Source: a phage
Assembly: GCA_026209155.1 (NCBI GenBank)
Contig: GCA_026209155.1_3056.1
Strand: one strand, 5' to 3'
DNA: 64,000 nucleotides
Shown here: piece after piece, positions 2,485-43,477 of the stretch
Position numbering within the stretch: the first letter of the stretch is position 1
How the letters are laid out: each line of letters begins with the position of its first letter
Notes under the pieces: model-generated
Databases searched by the model: none
Seen by the model: only the letters and a program-made list of their open reading frames with translations
Told to the model about the DNA's origin: nothing
Position numbers and translations under genes: made by a program

Positions 2485-2688
2485 TTAATTCATATTGCGT
2501 TTAATAACTTCAACAACTTCTAGTAGTTCATCTTTAGTTGCGGTGTCGGATTGAATTTTATCTCTAATATCCTTAAAGCGGTTTTTAAACTCTTCAGCTT
2601 CTCCCATATCGAAAAAGCGTTGAATGATTCTATATTCTCGATGAACTGCTTTATCAAAAAGTTCTAAATTTACTTTATATGATTTCAT
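2485..2688 (-). CDS. small protein at the rIIA.1 position
   Basis: 67-aa ORF immediately upstream of rIIA on same strand; assignment by synteny only. Confidence 0.55.
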
Positions 2689-2711
2689 TTCAATATCCTC
2701 ATTTGCCCAAT

Positions 2712-2745
2712 TAATTATACCACATCCTTGTGGTAAAGTAAACTA
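2712..2745 (-). promoter_or_regulatory. T4-type early promoter (GTTTAC -35, 18-nt spacer, TATAAT -10) upstream of rIIA.1/rIIA
   Basis: Plus strand shows attata (2714-2719) and gtaaac (2738-2743), i.e. minus-strand GTTTAC-N18-TATAAT; spacer contains palindrome ccacatccttgtgg. Confidence 0.55.
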
Positions 2746-4560
2746 TTGGCTCATCCATTCTTTACGAAGGTCAGCATTATCTCCCATGAGCATTTCAAAA
2801 AGCTCTTTCCAGTTCTCAGGAAGTTTAACAACATCATATACTGGGTTTTGAATCATCTCACGATATTCAGATTTTTCCAAAGAGCCAAGTCCTTTAATAT
2901 AACGGATGCTATGTTTAGGTAGAGCATCTTTGGCACTCTCATATTCAGCGACTGTATAAAACCATTCTTGTTTTTTACCGACCTGAGCGATGATTACAGG
3001 AGTTTTGACAAAGCGAATTCTTCCTTGTTCAAACAATTCTGGCCAATTACTAAAAAATCCGAGCAGAGAAGGATAAATGCTTCCTAGACCATCATGGTCA
3101 GCATCAGTCATAATAGCAATATTATGATAATTCAAGTTTTCAGCCTTTTCACCAAGAACTAATCCAGTGATTGCACAAATATCGAACAGTTCTTTGTTTT
3201 TAAGCATATCAGCATATGACATGCCCCAACTGTTAAGAACTTTACCACGCAATGGATAACCACCATGAAGTTCTTTATCACGAACATCAATAAGATATCC
3301 GATAGCAGAATCACCCTCAGTCAAGAAAAGAGTAGTATCAGCATCTTTACCGCAAAGATTCGCTTTGATATGTTTATGAACCTTAGCTTTAGAAGCCTTT
3401 TTAGCTGCTTTAGTTTCTGCTGCTTTTTCTGCCGCCAATTTACGAGCCAAAGCAGCTTCAATAATCGGCATTAGAATTGCTTCATTATTTAGAATAGCGC
3501 GTGAAATCTTTTTAGCATCAAGCTGAATATGACTACGAATTTCGCCAAATGGAGAAGTCAAACGCTCTTTAGTTTGAGAATCAAATCGCATGTTTTTCAT
3601 ATCACGAACAAACATAACGATAGTCAAACATTCTTTAACACGTGCTTTAGTTACATCAATTTTGAACTTACGTTTGATTTGTGGAATAAGGTCTTCACAA
3701 ATATCATCCATAACGCAGTCAATGTGATGGCCACCATTCTTAGTATGAATGTTATTGACGTATGTTAATTGACGAAAACCATCCGGTGAACGACCAACCG
3801 CAATAGAACAATTTTCTTGTTCTTGAACAATAGCATGTTCATCATATTGGCGTGCATATTTCTTAAAATTACCCTGAACCTTTTTACCATTAAAGGTAAA
3901 TTGAATATCAGGATAAACTACTGCAAGTGTCTGGAGACGATCTAGCGTAATGTCAAGATAAACTTGAGATAGTTCATTAGTTTCAAATGACATAAAATCA
4001 GGAATGAAAGTAACACGAGTTCCTTTCCATTTTCCAGGAATAGTTTCCCATGATTTATTTTCCATGCCATTTGAACAACGAACTACAATATTATTTTGAC
4101 CATCGCCAGTTTCACCGACAAACATCACAGAAAAAATGTTAGTTAAACTAGAGCCAACACCGTTCATACCGCCAGTGACGCGTTCTTTATCATCACCAAA
4201 GTTACCACCTGCTTTTGGAATAGTCCAGGCAGCAACAGGACCAGGAATTTCTTCACCAGTAGGTGTTTTAACCATCGCTTGTGGAATACCACGACCGTTA
4301 TCTTCAACTGTTACTTGATTGTTTTTGATAGTAACATTAATTTTATTTGCGAATTTAAACTTAGTACGAATACCTTCATCTACTGAGTTATCGATAATTT
4401 CATCAATAAGCTTAACAAGACCAGGTACATACTGAACACTTTCCCATTTACCAAACAGAAAGCGCTCATGCATTTCATTAGCGGAAGAGCCAATGTACAT
4501 GCCGCTACGCTTTTTGATATGTTCAATATCGCTCAGAATTTTAATTTCATTCTTAATCAT
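2743..4560 (-). CDS. 39: DNA topoisomerase II large subunit, unsplit form (GyrB-like ATPase plus TOPRIM in one ORF)
   Basis: 606-aa track ORF starts with GTG; ATG one codon in gives MIKNEIKILSDIEHIKKRSGMYIGSS... (T4 gp39 N-terminus); TOPRIM motif EGDSA present in the same frame, so no gene-60-type interruption. Confidence 0.9.
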   Translation of the reverse strand: MIKNEIKILSDIEHIKKRSGMYIGSSANEMHERFLFGKWESVQYVPGLVKLIDEIIDNSVDEGIRTKFKFANKINVTIKNNQVTVEDNGRGIPQAMVKTPTGEEIPGPVAAWTIPKAGGNFGDDKERVTGGMNGVGSSLTNIFSVMFVGETGDGQNNIVVRCSNGMENKSWETIPGKWKGTRVTFIPDFMSFETNELSQVYLDITLDRLQTLAVVYPDIQFTFNGKKVQGNFKKYARQYDEHAIVQEQENCSIAVGRSPDGFRQLTYVNNIHTKNGGHHIDCVMDDICEDLIPQIKRKFKIDVTKARVKECLTIVMFVRDMKNMRFDSQTKERLTSPFGEIRSHIQLDAKKISRAILNNEAILMPIIEAALARKLAAEKAAETKAAKKASKAKVHKHIKANLCGKDADTTLFLTEGDSAIGYLIDVRDKELHGGYPLRGKVLNSWGMSYADMLKNKELFDICAITGLVLGEKAENLNYHNIAIMTDADHDGLGSIYPSLLGFFSNWPELFEQGRIRFVKTPVIIAQVGKKQEWFYTVAEYESAKDALPKHSIRYIKGLGSLEKSEYREMIQNPVYDVVKLPENWKELFEMLMGDNADLRKEWMSQ

Positions 4561-4610
4561 CACTTATCCTCGTTTGGTTTCGGGAATATTATACTCCGGT
4601 AATCATAAAG

Positions 4611-4632
4611 CTAAAGGCCCGAAGGCCTTTTA
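4611..4632 (-). terminator. intrinsic terminator-like hairpin (GGCC-UUCG-GGCC stem, U-rich tail) after the 90-aa lipoprotein gene
   Basis: Palindrome aaaggcc cgaa ggccttt at 4613-4630, overlapping the stop codon. Confidence 0.45.
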
Positions 4633-4902
4633 TTTAAAACGGATAGTCGAATCCTTGAAGAATAGACCAGAACACACGGTTCCTTCTACTTTCTGCCCAG
4701 TAGGTCCAATAGCACGAAATCCAGTATGCTGGAAATCATTTTCAGAGCAACCGAACCAATTATATCCAGTGATTTCAATATTAGTAAAACCACTTGAAGA
4801 CAAAACTTTGGTTGCATTATCGGCATCAGTACATCCTACTAAAGATACTGCTAATACTAATGCCGCGATAGAACGATTAACATATTTCATAATTTCACTC
4901 AA
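4630..4902 (-). CDS. putative lipoprotein
   Basis: 90-aa ORF with signal peptide and lipobox (LAVSLVGC). Confidence 0.5.
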   Translation of the reverse strand: MSEIMKYVNRSIAALVLAVSLVGCTDADNATKVLSSSGFTNIEITGYNWFGCSENDFQHTGFRAIGPTGQKVEGTVCSGLFFKDSTIRFK

Positions 4903-5266
4903 ATTTAATGGCTTGAAGAAGACTAATAATTCTCAAGCGACTTCTTTCATCTTTAACTGTAAAAGAAAGAGGGTCACCAGATTTCATAGTGATGGTGCAT
5001 CCAAAATCAAAATCTTCTGTAACTTCTTCGAATAGGTCAAATTCTTCATCATAAATTAGAACATTACTCTGAAAACTGTGAAGAATTTTTCCATCATTTC
5101 CAGATGCTGTACTAATCACTGTAACATTATTACCTTTCATATCTTCAACGATAAATTCGCTTGTAGATATTACATTACTAATAGAACCATTCCTATAAAT
5201 AGCAGAAAATAGATATTTCTTTTCTTCACCTTCGCGAATGCGATATTTCTTACCGATTTTAAACAT
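4895..5266 (-). CDS. hypothetical protein
   Basis: Track ORF 4895..5272 begins with GTG; first ATG gives MFKIGKKYRIREGEEKK... (123 aa); ATGA-type junction with upstream small ORF. Confidence 0.45.
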   Translation of the reverse strand: MFKIGKKYRIREGEEKKYLFSAIYRNGSISNVISTSEFIVEDMKGNNVTVISTASGNDGKILHSFQSNVLIYDEEFDLFEEVTEDFDFGCTITMKSGDPLSFTVKDERSRLRIISLLQAIKFE

Positions 5267-5268
5267 AA

Positions 5269-5445
5269 TCACCCTTTAAGTAAGTCGTAAAAACCGCCAT
5301 TTACATGCTTAGGAGCAGAAGGCCGACGAGTAGACAAACGATGACATTTAGGGCAAACATCATTTTCTCGTTCAGAAATCTTTTTAATTTTTTCATATTC
5401 ATGCCCACAATCTTCGGATTGGCATTTATAATCATACATTGGCAT
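5269..5445 (-). CDS. FmdB-like zinc-ribbon mini-protein (58 aa)
   Basis: Not in ORF track (<60 aa). ATG at 5443-5445 preceded by AAGGAA; translates MPMYDYKCQSEDCGHEYEKIKKISERENDVCPKCHRLSTRRPSAPKHVNGGFYDLLKG with two CxxC pairs; stop overlaps next gene start. Confidence 0.45.
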   Translation of the reverse strand: MPMYDYKCQSEDCGHEYEKIKKISERENDVCPKCHRLSTRRPSAPKHVNGGFYDLLKG

Positions 5446-5447
5446 AA

Positions 5448-5867
5448 TTATTCCTTAAAATGTGCTTTCAACATCTGATACAAAGACCATGCATGTTCAT
5501 TATTTTCAATAGTAACTTTCATTACCGGGAATTCTGTGAAATCTTCTATTTGTTCTTGCTCTTCCTGCTCTTGTTCTTCAGCAGCCTGATATGGATTTTC
5601 AACTTCATCAAAGAACCCAGCTTCACTTTTTGAAAGCCAAATAAAGTCTTCATCCAAAACATCTTTATCAGGAGATAGTACTAAATTTCCAGTAGATGAC
5701 AAAATTTTAATAGGACGCCCAAGAGCGTCCACATCTAAAATTTTAAAAGGATACATACCTAAACGGCGCGCATAAATTCCGTTATTAATATGGTCTTTAA
5801 TAAAATTTTCTTGAGCTTGTTTATTTTTAAATTGATACCATTTATTAACTTCAAATCTAATAGCCAT
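5448..5867 (-). CDS. hypothetical acidic protein
   Basis: 139-aa ORF with [10 protein letters not shown] tract; length and position suggest T4 goF but I cannot verify. Confidence 0.45.
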
Positions 5868-29393: not shown

Positions 29394-30080
29394 TTAAAAA
29401 TCGTGGGTAGAATCAGCTTCAAGAGCTACTACATAATTCGCATGTTCACCTTCAAATTTAGCAGCACCTTGTTTACCTTTTGCCCAGAGCAGAAGTTTAT
29501 AATTTCCTGGTTGCATTTTCATATTTGCCATATTGATAATGAAATTAAATGTATTTTCACCATCATAATCACCAAGAGTCAAAGAATATTTAACACGGGT
29601 TAAAGCAGAATCTTCTACTTTATTAAAACCGTTAATTACGATTTTACCTTCTTTTACCGTGATAGCAATTGTATCAATTTGCAGACCACGGGATACACGC
29701 AACAGTTGTTGAAGGTCTTCAGCTTTAATTTCAGTAACAACAGATGCTACCGGGAATGGAATTGGTTTATTAGGAGCAACTACTGTACTCGGATCGGCTG
29801 CTGGCCAAAAAATTGTTGAACGAGCATCAGCAATTTTAATATTTCCATCTTCTGACTGGGAAATTTCTGCATCATCATTAACTAGAGACAGAATACCGAG
29901 AAAACCGTTCAAATCGTAAATTGCTACATCAAAATCAATAACGTCAGAAATATTTGCTTCCGCATAAGTTGTACCATTAACTGCACGAGTCATAATAAAT
30001 TGACCAGATTTAAGCATAATACCGGAGTTAATAGTAGCGAAATTTTTCAAAATATTCAGTGTGTCTTTAGATAATTTCAT
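29394..30080 (-). CDS. 45: sliding clamp
   Basis: 228-aa [31 protein letters not shown]...; same length as T4 gp45. Confidence 0.9.
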   Translation of the reverse strand: MKLSKDTLNILKNFATINSGIMLKSGQFIMTRAVNGTTYAEANISDVIDFDVAIYDLNGFLGILSLVNDDAEISQSEDGNIKIADARSTIFWPAADPSTVVAPNKPIPFPVASVVTEIKAEDLQQLLRVSRGLQIDTIAITVKEGKIVINGFNKVEDSALTRVKYSLTLGDYDGENTFNFIINMANMKMQPGNYKLLLWAKGKQGAAKFEGEHANYVVALEADSTHDF

Positions 30081-30964
30081 TTCAATTTCCTATTTACATA
30101 ATAGTTAGACCAGGACCGTACAGCACCCTGATAAGATTCGTCGTTAAACCCATTAGCTACTGCAATTTTACGAAATTTATTATAACTCGGTTTTCCGTAA
30201 GCATGCCATAAAGTTTTTAATTCATCTTCATGTTCAATCCAAGTTCCTCTAGCTTTAGATTTTCTAAATTTTGATTTGAATTCCGGTAAATTATTTCTAA
30301 CAGTTGCTTGAATTGAAGCTCTCTGTCTTCTTTCAGCATTATTCCATAACTCTTTTTGAGATTTAGAAATTTTTGATCTTACACTTTCTGAATTCATTAT
30401 ATCACTAAACTTTTTAGCATAACTACAATCAAGATATTTCAATTTCATCTTATTTGAAAGTTTAAGCTTTTTCTCATCGGTCCAGTGATTCTTCATTGAA
30501 TTAGATATTTTATATTTTACGCCAGAACTATGTTTGTAACCTTTACGAATACCAACATAATCGGGCGTAATTTCAGATTGCGAAAGCTTTACAATTTTTC
30601 CAGTTAAAACATTTTTATATGTTCCATATCCTTTAGCGCCAATTAAAGTATTTTCATCTGCGTATGCTTTATTAAAATATTTTATATTGCTTTTTGCTTT
30701 AACTTTTAATTGAAAAAATCTTTCCAATTTTCTTGGATCTAATATAGTTTCAGCTAAAATTTTGACGGTATATTTAGTGGTTTTAATAAGCTCAAAATAT
30801 TCATCACTATAACTCGATGACACGCTTCCAGTATAAATCTTTCCAGCTGAATCAATTATATTTGTTCCATCGAAAATTGCGTTAATTTTTGAACCTATAT
30901 AATAACACGGAAAAATATTTTTAGCTTCCCGCTCTGGAAAGCTAATAAGATATACTAAATTCAT
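30077..30964 (-). CDS. homing-endonuclease-like protein (GIY-YIG-like N-terminus, NUMOD3-like basic repeats)
   Basis: 295-aa ORF between genes 45 and rpbA with 4-nt overlaps on both sides; LVYLISF...CYYIGSK motif and K/R-rich repeats ([16 protein letters not shown]). Confidence 0.5.
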
Positions 30965-39899: not shown

Positions 39900-40370
39900 T
39901 TAATCATGTTTCCACACCCCATCGGTATTTGACCAAAGTCGCTGATTATCTGAACCTCGCCACAGCTTTTTAGTCGGAAGATTTTTCTCATACTTCCCAT
40001 CAATAATAACATCAACATATTTAAGCATTTCTAGTTGTTTAATATCTTCAAACTTGTACCCTGTCCACAACCAAATGCTTTTATTTGGATAAAGATTTTT
40101 TACAGTTTGAACAATGCAATGAACATCATCTCGGTTATCAGGATAAAGAGGGTCACCTCCGGTTATAGTTAATCCTTCTATATAATCATTATTCAAACAT
40201 TCAATCAATTGTTCTAGTGTTTCACCAGTAAATGGAATACCATTTCTAGCATTCCATGTTGATTTATTATAACACCCTTCGCATTTATGCAAACAACCTG
40301 TAACGAAAAGAACGACCCTGCATCCAGGGCCATTCACAAAATCGCAAGGATAAAATCTATCATAATTCAT
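39900..40370 (-). CDS. nrdG: anaerobic ribonucleotide reductase activating protein (radical SAM)
   Basis: Start at internal ATG gives MNYDRFYPCDFVNGPGCRVVLFVTGCLHKCEGC (156 aa) with a CxxxCxxC-type cluster. Confidence 0.8.
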   Translation of the reverse strand: MNYDRFYPCDFVNGPGCRVVLFVTGCLHKCEGCYNKSTWNARNGIPFTGETLEQLIECLNNDYIEGLTITGGDPLYPDNRDDVHCIVQTVKNLYPNKSIWLWTGYKFEDIKQLEMLKYVDVIIDGKYEKNLPTKKLWRGSDNQRLWSNTDGVWKHD

Positions 40371-41197
40371 AATAATATCCAATTTTTCCAAGCTTCATCA
40401 GTAGAATTACAGCGTTTTAGTATAAGATGTCTAGAAACTTTTATGGAATTTGAGCACTTTTTAATTGAATCATATTTAATACCGTCAACTGAAACGGTTT
40501 TGCTAGTTGGAGAAATTTTTCCATACATTGGATTTTTTGAACCAACTTGAAGTCCTTTTAAAGCTTTTGAAAGCTTTTGTCTAGATTCCAATGACATGGG
40601 AGAATTCTTTTTACCTTCAATAATTCGCTTGCGATGAAGTTCGCGTTCTTCTTCACTCAAAGAATTGTAATATTTTTTAACACCGTTTGATATAGATAAT
40701 TTATCTTTCTCAGACCGCTCTCCAGCTAATTTACTTCTAACATCTTTTCGCTTCATAGCTATGCTTACGGCTTTATTTAAATTTGCTTGATGCTCTGGCG
40801 TACGTTTATATTTCTTTAAAGCACGTGAAATAGCTATTTTAGTTTCTTCTGTTCTCTTTTTACCTTTATTTGCTAAACTATTTTTGTGGCGATGTTCAAG
40901 TGTCTGTTCATAGGCAGTTCCACCTTTTCCACCAGGTTTAATATTATATGTATTTTCTTTTAGACAATACTCTTCAGTTACAAGTTCAGCTTCTTTATCA
41001 TACATTTGCTTTTCATTATCAAAAACATATAAAATTTCTTTATAAAAATTTTTTATACCATATTTTAATAAAGCAGCACGAATCAATGTTCCTGATCCCA
41101 TATAACCGTCATTTATATTATCGGTGCTATGCGCACCGATATATTCCTTTGAATTAATTATATTTGTTATTTTATAAATTATATAATACCTATGCAT
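40367..41197 (-). CDS. free-standing GIY-YIG homing endonuclease (Seg-like)
   Basis: 276-aa ORF; N-terminal YYIIYKITNIINSKEYIGAHS motif; NUMOD3-like repeats (KGKKRTEETKIAISRALK, SPMSLESRQKLSKALKG); wedged between nrdD and nrdG with 4-8 nt overlaps. Confidence 0.7.
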   Translation of the reverse strand: MHRYYIIYKITNIINSKEYIGAHSTDNINDGYMGSGTLIRAALLKYGIKNFYKEILYVFDNEKQMYDKEAELVTEEYCLKENTYNIKPGGKGGTAYEQTLEHRHKNSLANKGKKRTEETKIAISRALKKYKRTPEHQANLNKAVSIAMKRKDVRSKLAGERSEKDKLSISNGVKKYYNSLSEEERELHRKRIIEGKKNSPMSLESRQKLSKALKGLQVGSKNPMYGKISPTSKTVSVDGIKYDSIKKCSNSIKVSRHLILKRCNSTDEAWKNWILL

Positions 41198-43007
41198 GTT
41201 TTACTCGTTTTACCATTTCTTTCATTTTACCTAAATTCCATGGAACAACGCTAGGAGTTCCAAGATATCCGCATGTTCTTCTTATTGTGTTCATCTTTTT
41301 AGGATCAGTTTCTCCACAAATAGAACAAACAAATCCGTTTTCAGTAGGAGTCATTTCATGGGTACTTCCACATGTAAAACATTTATCTACTGGCATATTA
41401 ACACCAAAATAATCTAAATGTTGTGCAGCATAATCCCATACAGCCTCAAGACCTTTTAAGTTATTTTTCATATCAGGAAGTTCAACATAAGAAATGTGGC
41501 CGCCTGTCGCAATGAAATGATATGGTGCTTCGCGAGAAATCTTTTCAAACGGAGTAATATTTTCTTCTACTGAAACATGGAAACTGTTAGTGTACCAACC
41601 TTTATCGGTAACATCCTTTACACTTCCATATTTTTCGGTATCAAGTTTACAGAAGCGATAACAAAGGTTTTCAGCAGGAGTAGAATACAAGCTAAAAGCA
41701 AAACCAGTTCTTTCAGTCCACTGCTTAAGACGAGCATTCATTTTAGTTAAAATTTCTTGTCCAATATCACGACCGACAAGAATATTCAATTCGTGAATAC
41801 CAATGTATCCTAAGGACACTGAACTTCTACCGTTTTTAAATAACTCAATTATATCATCATCAGGTTTAAGACGAACCCCGAATGCACCTTCTTGGTAAAG
41901 AATAGGAGCAACAGTCGCTTTAACTCCTTTTAAGGAACTAATTCTACACATCAAAGCTTCAAAACACAGATCCATTCGTTCATTAAATAGCTCAACAAAT
42001 TTCTGCTCATTGAATTGAGTTCCAATATAAGAATCTAATGCAATACGAGGAAGATTCAGTGTTACAACGCCAAGATTATTACGTCCATCAAGAATTTCAT
42101 TACCAGTCGAATCTTTCCATACGCTCAAGAAACTGCGGCAACCCATTGGAGAAACAGGAATAGATGAACCTGTGATAGCTTTATTGTTCTTAGCCGAAAT
42201 GATGTCAGGATACATTCTTTTACTTGCACATTCTAGAGCAAGCTGCTTAATATCATAGTTCGGATCGTCTTTATAAAGATTAACACCTTCTTCAACGAAC
42301 ATAACAAGTTTAGGGAAAATAGGAGTTATCCCATCGCGACCAAGACCTTTGATACGATTTTTCAGAATTGCTTTCTGAATCATTCGTTCAGTCCAGTCAG
42401 TTCCCGTACCAAATGTAATTGTTACAAAAGGCGTTTGTCCGTTTGAACTAAAGAGAGTATTTACTTCATATTCATAAGCTTGGAATGCATCGTATACGTC
42501 TTTTTCTGTTTTAGATTGGGCATAATTCAACGCATCAGCGATTTGCCATTTTTCTGCATCCTCAATATGTTTTGCATAGGTGCGTTTAACATAAGGAGAA
42601 AGTACTTTATCTACATTCGCAAAAGTCGTTCCGCCATATTGGTGGGAAGCAACCTGTGCAGTAATTTGTGCCATAATTGCAGTAGCAACGCCGATTGATT
42701 TAGGAGTTTCAATCTGTGCATTACCGAGCTTAAATCCGTTCTCAAGCATTCCTTTTAAATCTACTAAACAGCAATTAGTAAATGGAAGAGCAGGGGAATA
42801 ATCAATATCATGGAAATGAATAATTCCGCTTTCATGCGCTTTCATAATAAAAGACGGGACCATATTTTTGGCAATGTGTTTAGACACAATACCAGCCATA
42901 AGGTCCCGTTGAGTTGGAAAAACACGAGAATCTTTATTAGCATTCTCGTTCAAAAGGTCTTTATTAGTTTTATGAATCAATCCTTCAATTTCTTTTTCAA
43001 TTGTCAT
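41190..43007 (-). CDS. nrdD: anaerobic ribonucleoside-triphosphate reductase (uninterrupted)
   Basis: 605-aa continuous ORF with C-terminal glycyl-radical motif RRTCGYLG and CxxC zinc site. Confidence 0.9.
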   Translation of the reverse strand: MTIEKEIEGLIHKTNKDLLNENANKDSRVFPTQRDLMAGIVSKHIAKNMVPSFIMKAHESGIIHFHDIDYSPALPFTNCCLVDLKGMLENGFKLGNAQIETPKSIGVATAIMAQITAQVASHQYGGTTFANVDKVLSPYVKRTYAKHIEDAEKWQIADALNYAQSKTEKDVYDAFQAYEYEVNTLFSSNGQTPFVTITFGTGTDWTERMIQKAILKNRIKGLGRDGITPIFPKLVMFVEEGVNLYKDDPNYDIKQLALECASKRMYPDIISAKNNKAITGSSIPVSPMGCRSFLSVWKDSTGNEILDGRNNLGVVTLNLPRIALDSYIGTQFNEQKFVELFNERMDLCFEALMCRISSLKGVKATVAPILYQEGAFGVRLKPDDDIIELFKNGRSSVSLGYIGIHELNILVGRDIGQEILTKMNARLKQWTERTGFAFSLYSTPAENLCYRFCKLDTEKYGSVKDVTDKGWYTNSFHVSVEENITPFEKISREAPYHFIATGGHISYVELPDMKNNLKGLEAVWDYAAQHLDYFGVNMPVDKCFTCGSTHEMTPTENGFVCSICGETDPKKMNTIRRTCGYLGTPSVVPWNLGKMKEMVKRVKHA

Positions 43008-43477
43008 TTTAAACTCTTTCTAAGCTGCTTCTTAAATGAAGCTATTAATTGTGTTTTGGTGTCAGATTCATTATATTCAAATCCTCTTTGAAGCATCTCG
43101 GCCATCATTTCCTCTTTTCCTAAACGAGAAAATTCCTTTGATTTATCTCCAACAAAGTTAGGGTGAATATTATTTTGGGTGTAATCGGATTTTAAATAAG
43201 TAAGTAAATTTTCTAACCATTCAAGATAATCAACACCTTGTCCCTTTAAGCCAGAACGATTAAATTTATGCTTCATTTGACCTTCCGCAGCATTGCAGAG
43301 ATTACAGAGCAATCCACGTACCTTTCCTGCTTTTGGTCCATTTAATTCATGGTCATGGTCAAGGTGATTAGCTTGAACATCAGGATTTAGTTCTCGTTGG
43401 CAAATTAAGCATTTACCGTTTTGTGCATCATAAAATTTCTGTTTTTCTTCTTTGTATAATTTGCCAGTCAATAACAT
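43004..43477 (-). CDS. 49: endonuclease VII (Holliday junction resolvase)
   Basis: 157-aa ORF MLLTGKLYKEEKQKFYDAQNGKCLICQRELNPD...; matches T4 gp49. Confidence 0.9.
   Translation of the reverse strand: MLLTGKLYKEEKQKFYDAQNGKCLICQRELNPDVQANHLDHDHELNGPKAGKVRGLLCNLCNAAEGQMKHKFNRSGLKGQGVDYLEWLENLLTYLKSDYTQNNIHPNFVGDKSKEFSRLGKEEMMAEMLQRGFEYNESDTKTQLIASFKKQLRKSLK

Follow-up and report, generated by a model that had tools for sequence, protein, structure and literature searches.

The T4-like phage gene segH was named in 2005 by Sandegren, Nord and Sjoberg (Nucleic Acids Res 33:6203), in a paper whose title calls SegH a homing endonuclease. In that work segH reportedly stood in place of mobC in 3 of 18 screened phages, SegH is said to cut DNA near its own gene, the DNA of its own phage included, and the gene, in alleles other than the one described here, reportedly homes in mixed infections. 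The SegA-SegG proteins of T4 have the GIY-YIG family and an intron-less homing lifestyle in common with SegH but differ in their insertion sites and targets; SegD is the closest of them to SegH (~30% identity over 91% of the length). I-TevI, encoded in the td intron of T4 (PDB 1LN0, 1MK0, 1I3J), shares a three-part layout with SegH at ~23% identity, whereas SegH is free-standing, outside any intron, and has a longer linker. At the nrdD/nrdG junction T4 itself carries mobC, which resembles segH in overlapping the genes on either side and in having no separate promoter, but is a 633-nt gene encoding an unrelated HNH fold; a review lists the activity of MobC as 'not determined' (PMC2988022).

We analysed a 64,000-nt stretch of phage DNA, hereafter the window, in which an open reading frame separates nrdD from nrdG. 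This frame is best explained, with a probability of about 0.9, as an intact segH allele, segH being a homing-endonuclease gene that is free-standing and whose product has the I-TevI layout. As judged from sequence comparison, the frame is segH, known in T4-like phages since 2005; the finding is real, and it is not new. The three genes at the junction are as follows.

39900..40370, minus strand: nrdG, activating radical-SAM subunit, 156 aa (Pfam Fer4_12, E 3.8e-48)
40367..41197, minus strand: segH coding sequence, free-standing homing-endonuclease gene, 276 aa (open reading frame and SegH identity)
41190..43007, minus strand: nrdD, anaerobic ribonucleotide reductase large subunit, 605 aa, intron-less (Pfam NRDD, E 7.5e-172, and Gly_radical)

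The surrounding gene order, a-gt, 55, nrdH, nrdG, the segH frame, nrdD and 49, is that of the T-even phages. The closest match to the window over 20 kb, vB_EcoM-G3F7, is 97.8% identical, and the window therefore belongs to a Tequatrovirus that is close to records in the collection but identical to none of them. At the junction itself, a 3.1-kb block spanning nrdG, the frame and nrdD is ~97% identical by megablast to PP01, T6, RB3, ACG-C40 and others, and several close matches, including T6, PP01 and KM16, have the gene annotated as segH or SegH. It lies between Pfam-confirmed NrdD and NrdG, as it does in the annotated records of T6 and RB3. Two short records, AY262138.2 (RB3) and AY262139.2 (LZ2), are titled 'NrdD, SegH, NrdG'; against the original RB3 deposit (ABI48949, AY262138.2) the window protein is equal in length and identical at 271 of 276 residues (98.2%), with the five substitutions I48R, Y52N, Y57H, H104R and S251A. 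It differs from T6 SegH at 8 of 276 residues (97.1% identity) and is 99.3% identical to the SHFML-26 protein; a match to PHROG 314, 'homing endonuclease' (E 4e-60), points the same way. Across GenBank some records, among them those of RB3 and RB5, mislabel segH as segD, and 'hypothetical protein' also occurs.

RB3, LZ2 and T6 share with the window the 831-nt gene, its position between nrdD and nrdG, overlaps of 8 nt and 4 nt with the neighbours and a linked nrdD tail, and PP01 likewise shares the length, position and overlaps; in T6 (MH550421) segH is 831 nt long and its overlaps are identical to those of the window. No categorical difference separates the window SegH from those of RB3, LZ2 and T6. 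The segH/nrdG junction of the window is of the LZ2 type, and RB3 and T6 differ here in having a variant nrdG 5′ end where the window has the unmodified form found in phages with an empty site.

The frame at 40367..41197 starts at an ATG (41197-41195) lying 5 nt upstream of the nrdD stop codon TAG (41192-41190), which gives the 8-nt overlap, and its stop codon TGA (40369-40367) shares the sequence ATGA with the nrdG start codon (40370-40368), which gives the 4-nt overlap. The annotations of T6, RB51 and T4 use the same nrdG start as is taken here (40370, MNYDRF...), and a TTG at 40391, offered by the frame listing as an alternative upstream start, is probably not the real one. An earlier note on this DNA, made from the sequence alone, had described overlaps of a few nucleotides with both neighbours, as is indeed the case, and had read them as the mark of a recent insertion. 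That reading does not hold, since nrdD and nrdG already overlap by ATGA in empty-site phages and all segH alleles examined have identical overlaps, a sharing that fits settled translational coupling.

The predicted protein divides into the following parts.

40919..41197, minus strand: N-terminal GIY-YIG-type nuclease domain, aa 1-93, with IIY at 6-8 and YIG at 19-21
40553..40900, minus strand: basic helical linker, aa 100-215, with NUMOD3-like helices (AlphaFold model)
40514..40600, minus strand: NUMOD3, the sole Pfam-significant copy, aa 200-228 (E 1.5e-7, 31.7 bits against a cutoff of 20.4)
40379..40522, minus strand: C-terminal I-TevI-like DNA-binding domain, aa 226-273, two short strands and a helix-turn-helix

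Searches with single models placed the protein poorly. The generic GIY-YIG model of Pfam, PF01541, gave no match; PF19835 (SegE_GIY-YIG) scored 14.8 bits against a threshold of 25, and PF20987 (I-TevI DNA-binding) 19.6 against 27. TIGR01453, 'group I intron endonuclease', matched from end to end (E 4.9e-13) yet stayed below its cutoff (49.6 against 56.05 bits), and a single-sequence phmmer search of the PDB returned chance-level matches only. PF19835 is found in many, and PF01541 in a few, of 429 SegH homologues.

Profiles and structure prediction place the protein more clearly. The IIY and YIG motifs sit at the spacing of I-TevI, with SegH Y8, Y19 and G21 aligned to I-TevI Y6, Y17 and G19. 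A profile built from homologues matched nothing in the PDB but the I-TevI catalytic domain, weakly (E 0.24) and over the full domain, and hhalign against I-TevI residues 5-91 gave a probability of 90.9%. The AlphaFold model, with pLDDT of 95-98 over residues 1-93, has the alpha/beta fold of GIY-YIG nucleases and places the two motifs on adjacent beta strands (4-12 and 18-25); searched with Foldseek, it returned the I-TevI catalytic domain at ranks 1-3 and the I-TevI DNA-binding domain at rank 4. The GIY-YIG assignment is thus supported by profile and predicted-fold evidence despite the failure of plain Pfam, and the layout is that of I-TevI: a GIY-YIG-type nuclease, a basic linker with NUMOD3 and a C-terminal helix-turn-helix. 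The same evidence upholds the earlier note in its central claim, that nrdD and nrdG are separated by a free-standing homing-endonuclease gene of GIY-YIG type. Its wording needs trimming: the N-terminus it called canonical has the two motifs at I-TevI spacing but fails PF01541 and lacks one element of I-TevI described below, and of its NUMOD3-like basic repeats one copy passes the Pfam cutoff, while the others are model helices that look alike by eye and carry no score. The HMM search it proposed as a check accordingly came out divided, with NUMOD3 passing and GIY-YIG recovered through the homologue profile and hhalign, but not by the generic model.

In an alignment of 46 homologues 19 columns are invariant: Y8, Y19, G21, H23, T25, D30, Y32, G34, S35 and G36, followed by G47, F51, K53, E69, V73, Y84, N85, G89 and G90. 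None of the five changes between the window and RB3 proteins falls in these columns. The invariant E69 (in K68-E69, compare I-TevI R74-E75) and N85 (in Y84-N85, compare Y89-N90) are candidates for the catalytic Glu and Asn, with the HMM alignment placing E69 one residue off I-TevI E75. The helix of I-TevI that carries Arg27 (DFEKRWKRH) has no counterpart in SegH, where the profile alignment and hhalign show a 9-residue deletion, and the nuclease domain contains no Arg that is invariant across the 46-homologue alignment. At this place SegH has instead the invariant loop T25..D30-x-Y32-x-G34-S35-G36. The deletion is common to the whole SegE-like subfamily and not specific to the window allele. 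Since the Arg27 helix is absent, we take the active site of SegH to be a Seg-type variant, whose catalytic competence is assumed from relatives.

The distribution of the gene was followed with a junction query made of 396 nt of nrdG and 400 nt of nrdD with segH left out, which matched 847 records, a count in which records are not dereplicated and GenBank and RefSeq twins are both included. At 90-95% identity there were 604 of the 847, and every one sampled was a single piece of ~802 nt, that is, an empty site; in the sampled phages RB51, RB14, RB32 and ECO07P1 this is where nrdD and nrdG overlap by ATGA. A further 70 of the 847 matched at 95-99% identity, every sampled one split by the 831 nt of segH, and T4-like records matched at 86-87%, split by ~640 nt. 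A tblastn search found SegH in 73 records (at least 80% identity) and MobC in 32 (at least 95%), one of which is T4. Across ~850 related records the junction is therefore mostly empty, with segH in ~9% and mobC in ~4%. Because the HNH gene mobC occupies the junction in T4, the positional counterpart of segH in that phage is mobC and not the intron. The presence and absence of segH is sporadic, as expected of a homing-endonuclease gene, at one fixed site that is intact and empty in close relatives. The earlier note had proposed this comparison, naming a gene shared by all relatives including T4 as grounds for giving up its claim, and most relatives lack segH (about 600 are empty, and T4 has mobC).

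Eight records with SegH matches at 60-80% identity were considered as possible degraded copies of segH and rejected: the one sampled (row H74) was a short N-terminal match to another endonuclease, and from this single row the whole band was taken as unrelated. The closest distinct homologue, 48% identical, lies directly downstream of nrdD in the Klebsiella Slopekvirus KP13MC5-1, a position that suggests, as far as sequence goes, a lineage-wide association with the 3′ end of nrdD.

Three short stretches at the borders of segH bear on how it moves.

41190..41262, minus strand: diverged nrdD 3′ end that accompanies segH; its product ends in TPSVVPWNLGKMKEMVKRVKHA, as against NPNERGFNLGKNKEIMHRVKHQ in T4 and in phages with an empty site
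41189..41198, minus strand: the 10-mer CATGCATAGG, in which segH has its start codon and nrdD its stop codon, read from the sequence
40341..40359, minus strand: nrdG nt 12-30, in the window of the 'naive' empty-site form, from alignment

Over its last 60 nt nrdD of the window has 26-27 mismatches against the empty-site phages RB51 and ECO07P1 and none against T6. The 73-nt diverged tail was found in 81 records, namely the 73 with segH and 8 hybrids that carry mobC, and a search of the collection found it in no empty-site record. Flanking sequence is thus co-inherited with segH. The difference between the two tails seems more naturally a divergence than a 16-nt insertion, in that a codon alignment keeps NLGK..KE...RVKH in register. 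The diverged flank of mobC, by comparison, lies in nrdG (103 mismatches in 471 nt), whereas that of segH lies in the nrdD tail.

The 8 hybrids, of the SHFML-11 type, have the segH-type nrdD tail followed by mobC. The T4-type nrdD tail contains the 10-mer CATGCATAGG as well, shifted out of register by 16 nt, and it is exactly at this 10-nt microhomology that the hybrids switch from segH-type to T4-type sequence. The other border is more variable. Most phages with segH (RB3, T6 and FL18, for example) have 8-9 substitutions in nrdG nt 12-30, including the codon changes F6I and D10C, while in the window the first 130 nt of nrdG are identical to those of the empty-site phage ECO07P1. This window-type segH/nrdG junction occurs in only 11 of the 69-73 segH-positive records, among them LZ2, HY03, Pu-Krd-SF1/2/5/6/7, moha, C2-3 and TH58. 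If the target of SegH lay in the nrdG 5′ end, a phage such as this, with that end unmodified beside its own segH, would cut itself. The mosaic flanks as a whole fit repeated gene conversion together with the replacement of one endonuclease gene by another.

Taken jointly, these observations could mean that the mobile unit comprises segH and the replaced last ~22 codons of nrdD, that the junction is a place where rival endonuclease genes displace one another, and that SegH is a SegE/SegH-type GIY-YIG nuclease without the canonical Arg, using the T25..D30-x-Y32-x-GSG loop or H23/K53. We offer this combination tentatively, as one that is more likely to fail than to hold. Three points are possibly fresh: segH is strictly linked to a replaced nrdD tail, mobC and segH-type sequence meet in hybrid junctions, and the Seg-type active site lacks the arginine. 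Parts of the reading in terms of a moving unit, displacement and an arginine-less nuclease may already stand in the 2005 SegH paper.

For expression, pattern searches of the minus strand found no late promoter motif (TATAAATA) within the locus and no MotA-box site at or inside segH; nor was there a good sigma-70-like site at or inside the gene, sigma-70-like matches being fewer than in shuffles. One candidate promoter was found upstream.

43070..43095, minus strand: MotA-box-like middle promoter (TGCTTCA, 13 nt, TATAAT), a consensus match only

This site falls within gene 49, near its 3′ end, with ~60 nt between it and the start of nrdD downstream, and is one of 14 matches to the pattern in the window, where 2.2 are expected; it is the likely, predicted promoter for nrdD-segH-nrdG. 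On this view segH would have no promoter of its own and would be transcribed with nrdD and nrdG from the promoter upstream of nrdD. Its translation would proceed by coupling or re-initiation, because the segH ATG lies 5 nt before the nrdD stop codon, and as the segH stop codon overlaps the nrdG ATG, nrdG would stay coupled as it is in empty-site phages. When the phage shares a host cell with a relative lacking the gene, SegH would cut the DNA of that relative near the nrdD/nrdG junction, and recombinational repair templated by the segH-positive genome would transfer both segH and the diverged nrdD tail beside it.

A nuclease at such a site might also be kept mainly for the benefit of the phage, through marker exclusion or through recombination and amplification near genes of nucleotide metabolism, with the spread of the gene secondary. 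Free-standing endonucleases of T4 do cause marker exclusion (PMC2988022), and a 2026 paper reports that SegB, through the amplification of loci close by, helps T6 to evade a defence system (PMC13096335). The mosaic flanks and mobC/segH hybrids, moreover, show the junction to be a recombination hot spot. However, ~70% of related records have no gene here at all, so that segH is dispensable, and a benefit of this kind is compatible with ordinary homing; we regard it as unlikely to be the main reason for the presence of the gene.

The preferred reading, an intact and homing segH, also has to be set against decay. Homing-endonuclease genes are expected to degenerate once fixed, and segH might be an inactive remnant, retained as its deletion would disturb nrdD termination and nrdG coupling. 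The missing Arg27 helix and the failure of the generic GIY-YIG model could be read in this way, as could I48, Y52 and Y57, three changes close to the conserved core that look private and are shared by only a few others, SHFML-26 for example. Against this, the frame is full length and equal to the RB3 allele, all 19 of the 19 invariant family columns are kept, the loss of the helix is a trait of the whole SegE-like family, and segH is at low frequency and not fixed. Compared with four other alleles, segH has a pN/pS of 0.17-0.26, and a value of ~0.2 indicates purifying selection. A decaying remnant is for these reasons distinctly improbable. With a GC content of 30.1% against 36.3% for nrdD, the gene looks, by its sequence, both functional and compositionally foreign.

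Turning to nrdD itself, the gene is a single frame of 605 codons, continuous as the earlier note had it, with an end-to-end NRDD match and a length of 1818 nt equal to that of nrdD in RB51, T6 and ECO07P1. In comparison with T4, the 1033-nt intron is absent at nrdD nt 538 (window 42469/42470), again as that note had it, and Rfam found no RNA family anywhere in the 64,000-nt window. The segH gene thus lies outside any intron or intein, between two complete genes. An nrdD without the intron appears, among the matches compared, to be the common state and no peculiarity of this phage: most close full-length megablast matches are single pieces of the window's length, while SYGD1, GRNsp7, EC128, CE1 and N2 give two-piece matches with ~1 kb extra and split nrdD annotations. 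T4 has the nrdD intron with I-TevII and also mobC at the nrdD/nrdG junction, and HY03 carries segH together with the nrdD intron and its endonuclease; by these comparisons segH and the intron are independent of each other. That segH stands in for the I-TevII-bearing nrdD intron of T4, as another element solving the same locus, is very improbable, for although both are GIY-YIG-family elements tied to nrdD and the window has the one without the other, their insertion points are ~1.3 kb apart (42469/42470 against 41190-41197), HY03 has both, as the two-piece matches suggest others do, and in T4 the position of segH is filled by mobC and not by the intron.

The earlier note was right about the kind of gene, a free-standing homing-endonuclease gene of GIY-YIG type, and wrong about its novelty and its relation to the intron: the different mobile-element solution that it saw at the locus of the T4 intron is a gene known since 2005, with mobC as its counterpart in T4, and HY03 has both segH and the intron. 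As a discovery the locus carries little weight, segH being routinely annotated in T6-like genomes. In practice the re-check is of use in showing that segH escapes standard Pfam GIY-YIG screening and that several GenBank records carry it under a wrong label, segD or 'hypothetical protein'. With ~850 related records surveyed, the occupancy of the nrdD/nrdG junction has been brought up to date, and these counts, with the linkage of segH to the nrdD tail and the hybrid alleles, are relevant to the way in which rival selfish nuclease genes mould the mosaic boundaries of T-even genomes.

The nrdD/nrdG junction of Shigella phage SHFML-11 and seven further records carries a hybrid of the mobC and segH alleles.

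SHFML-11 locus (L005) 2985-3075: hybrid allele

Reading along the hybrid, the segH-type nrdD tail is followed by 12 nt of T4-type tail, mobC (the HNH free-standing endonuclease gene found here in T4), the RB3-type cluster of substitutions at the nrdG 5′ end and then T4-type nrdG. The 10-nt sequence CATGCATAGG is the crossover point in these SHFML-11-type hybrids.

Another arrangement was observed in the Mosigvirus Escherichia phage FL18, where the interval from gene 49 to segH contains no nrdD and its position is filled by a GIY-YIG-like/NUMOD3 ORF.

FL18 locus (L007) 1678-2508: segH
FL18 locus (L007) 2501-3169: GIY-YIG-like/NUMOD3 ORF, 222 aa, adjoining segH

The last 22 residues of this ORF are exactly the segH-type NrdD tail, TPSVVPWNLGKMKEMVKRVKHA. 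It thus looks as though nrdD has been replaced in FL18 by an endonuclease gene, with the nrdD tail kept. Annotation of segH itself is inconsistent: it is mislabelled “segD” in GenBank KM606994-KM606999 and NC_025419 (RB3, RB5, RB6, RB7, RB9, RB10), and is a “hypothetical protein” or “NUMOD3 motif protein” in several other genomes.

T4 mobC and nrdG have their first codons in common, encoding MNYDRI (ATGAATTATGACAGAAT versus ATGAATTATGATAGAAT), and therefore a near-repeat of ~17 nt of the nrdG start brackets the mobC insert.

T4 locus (L002) 4907-5539: mobC
T4 locus (L002) 4447-4917: nrdG

T4 and window nrdG differ at 103 of 471 nt and diverge strongly across codons 36-100. In nrdD, near the site where T4 carries its intron (window 42440..42500), 10 of 90 positions differ between the window and the T4 spliced-exon sequence, nine of them on the exon-2 side. 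This bias is consistent with co-conversion of the exon or with a polymorphic I-TevII target site.

Two possible RNA hairpins were identified in segH and nrdG.

Window 41119..41141: 9-bp palindrome, TATCGGTGC TATGC GCACCGATA, inside segH over the YIGAHSTD codons
Window 40335..40310, (-) strand: GC-rich hairpin of 11 pairs followed by a T-run, within nrdG codons 12-20

The palindrome could form an mRNA hairpin ~55 nt past the segH start codon. The nrdG hairpin with its T-run resembles a terminator, and the segment is almost unaltered across the aligned alleles of T6, RB3, FL18, RB51, ECO07P1 and T4.

Elsewhere in the window, directly upstream of gene 45, lies an ORF whose N-terminus is GIY-YIG-like (LVYLISF...YYIGSK).

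Window 30077..30964, (-) strand: GIY-YIG-like ORF, 295 aa

A Pfam scan of this ORF returned no match. It is present in only 25 phage records, some of which annotate it as “homing endonuclease”, and is probably the window's second sporadic Seg-like endonuclease gene.
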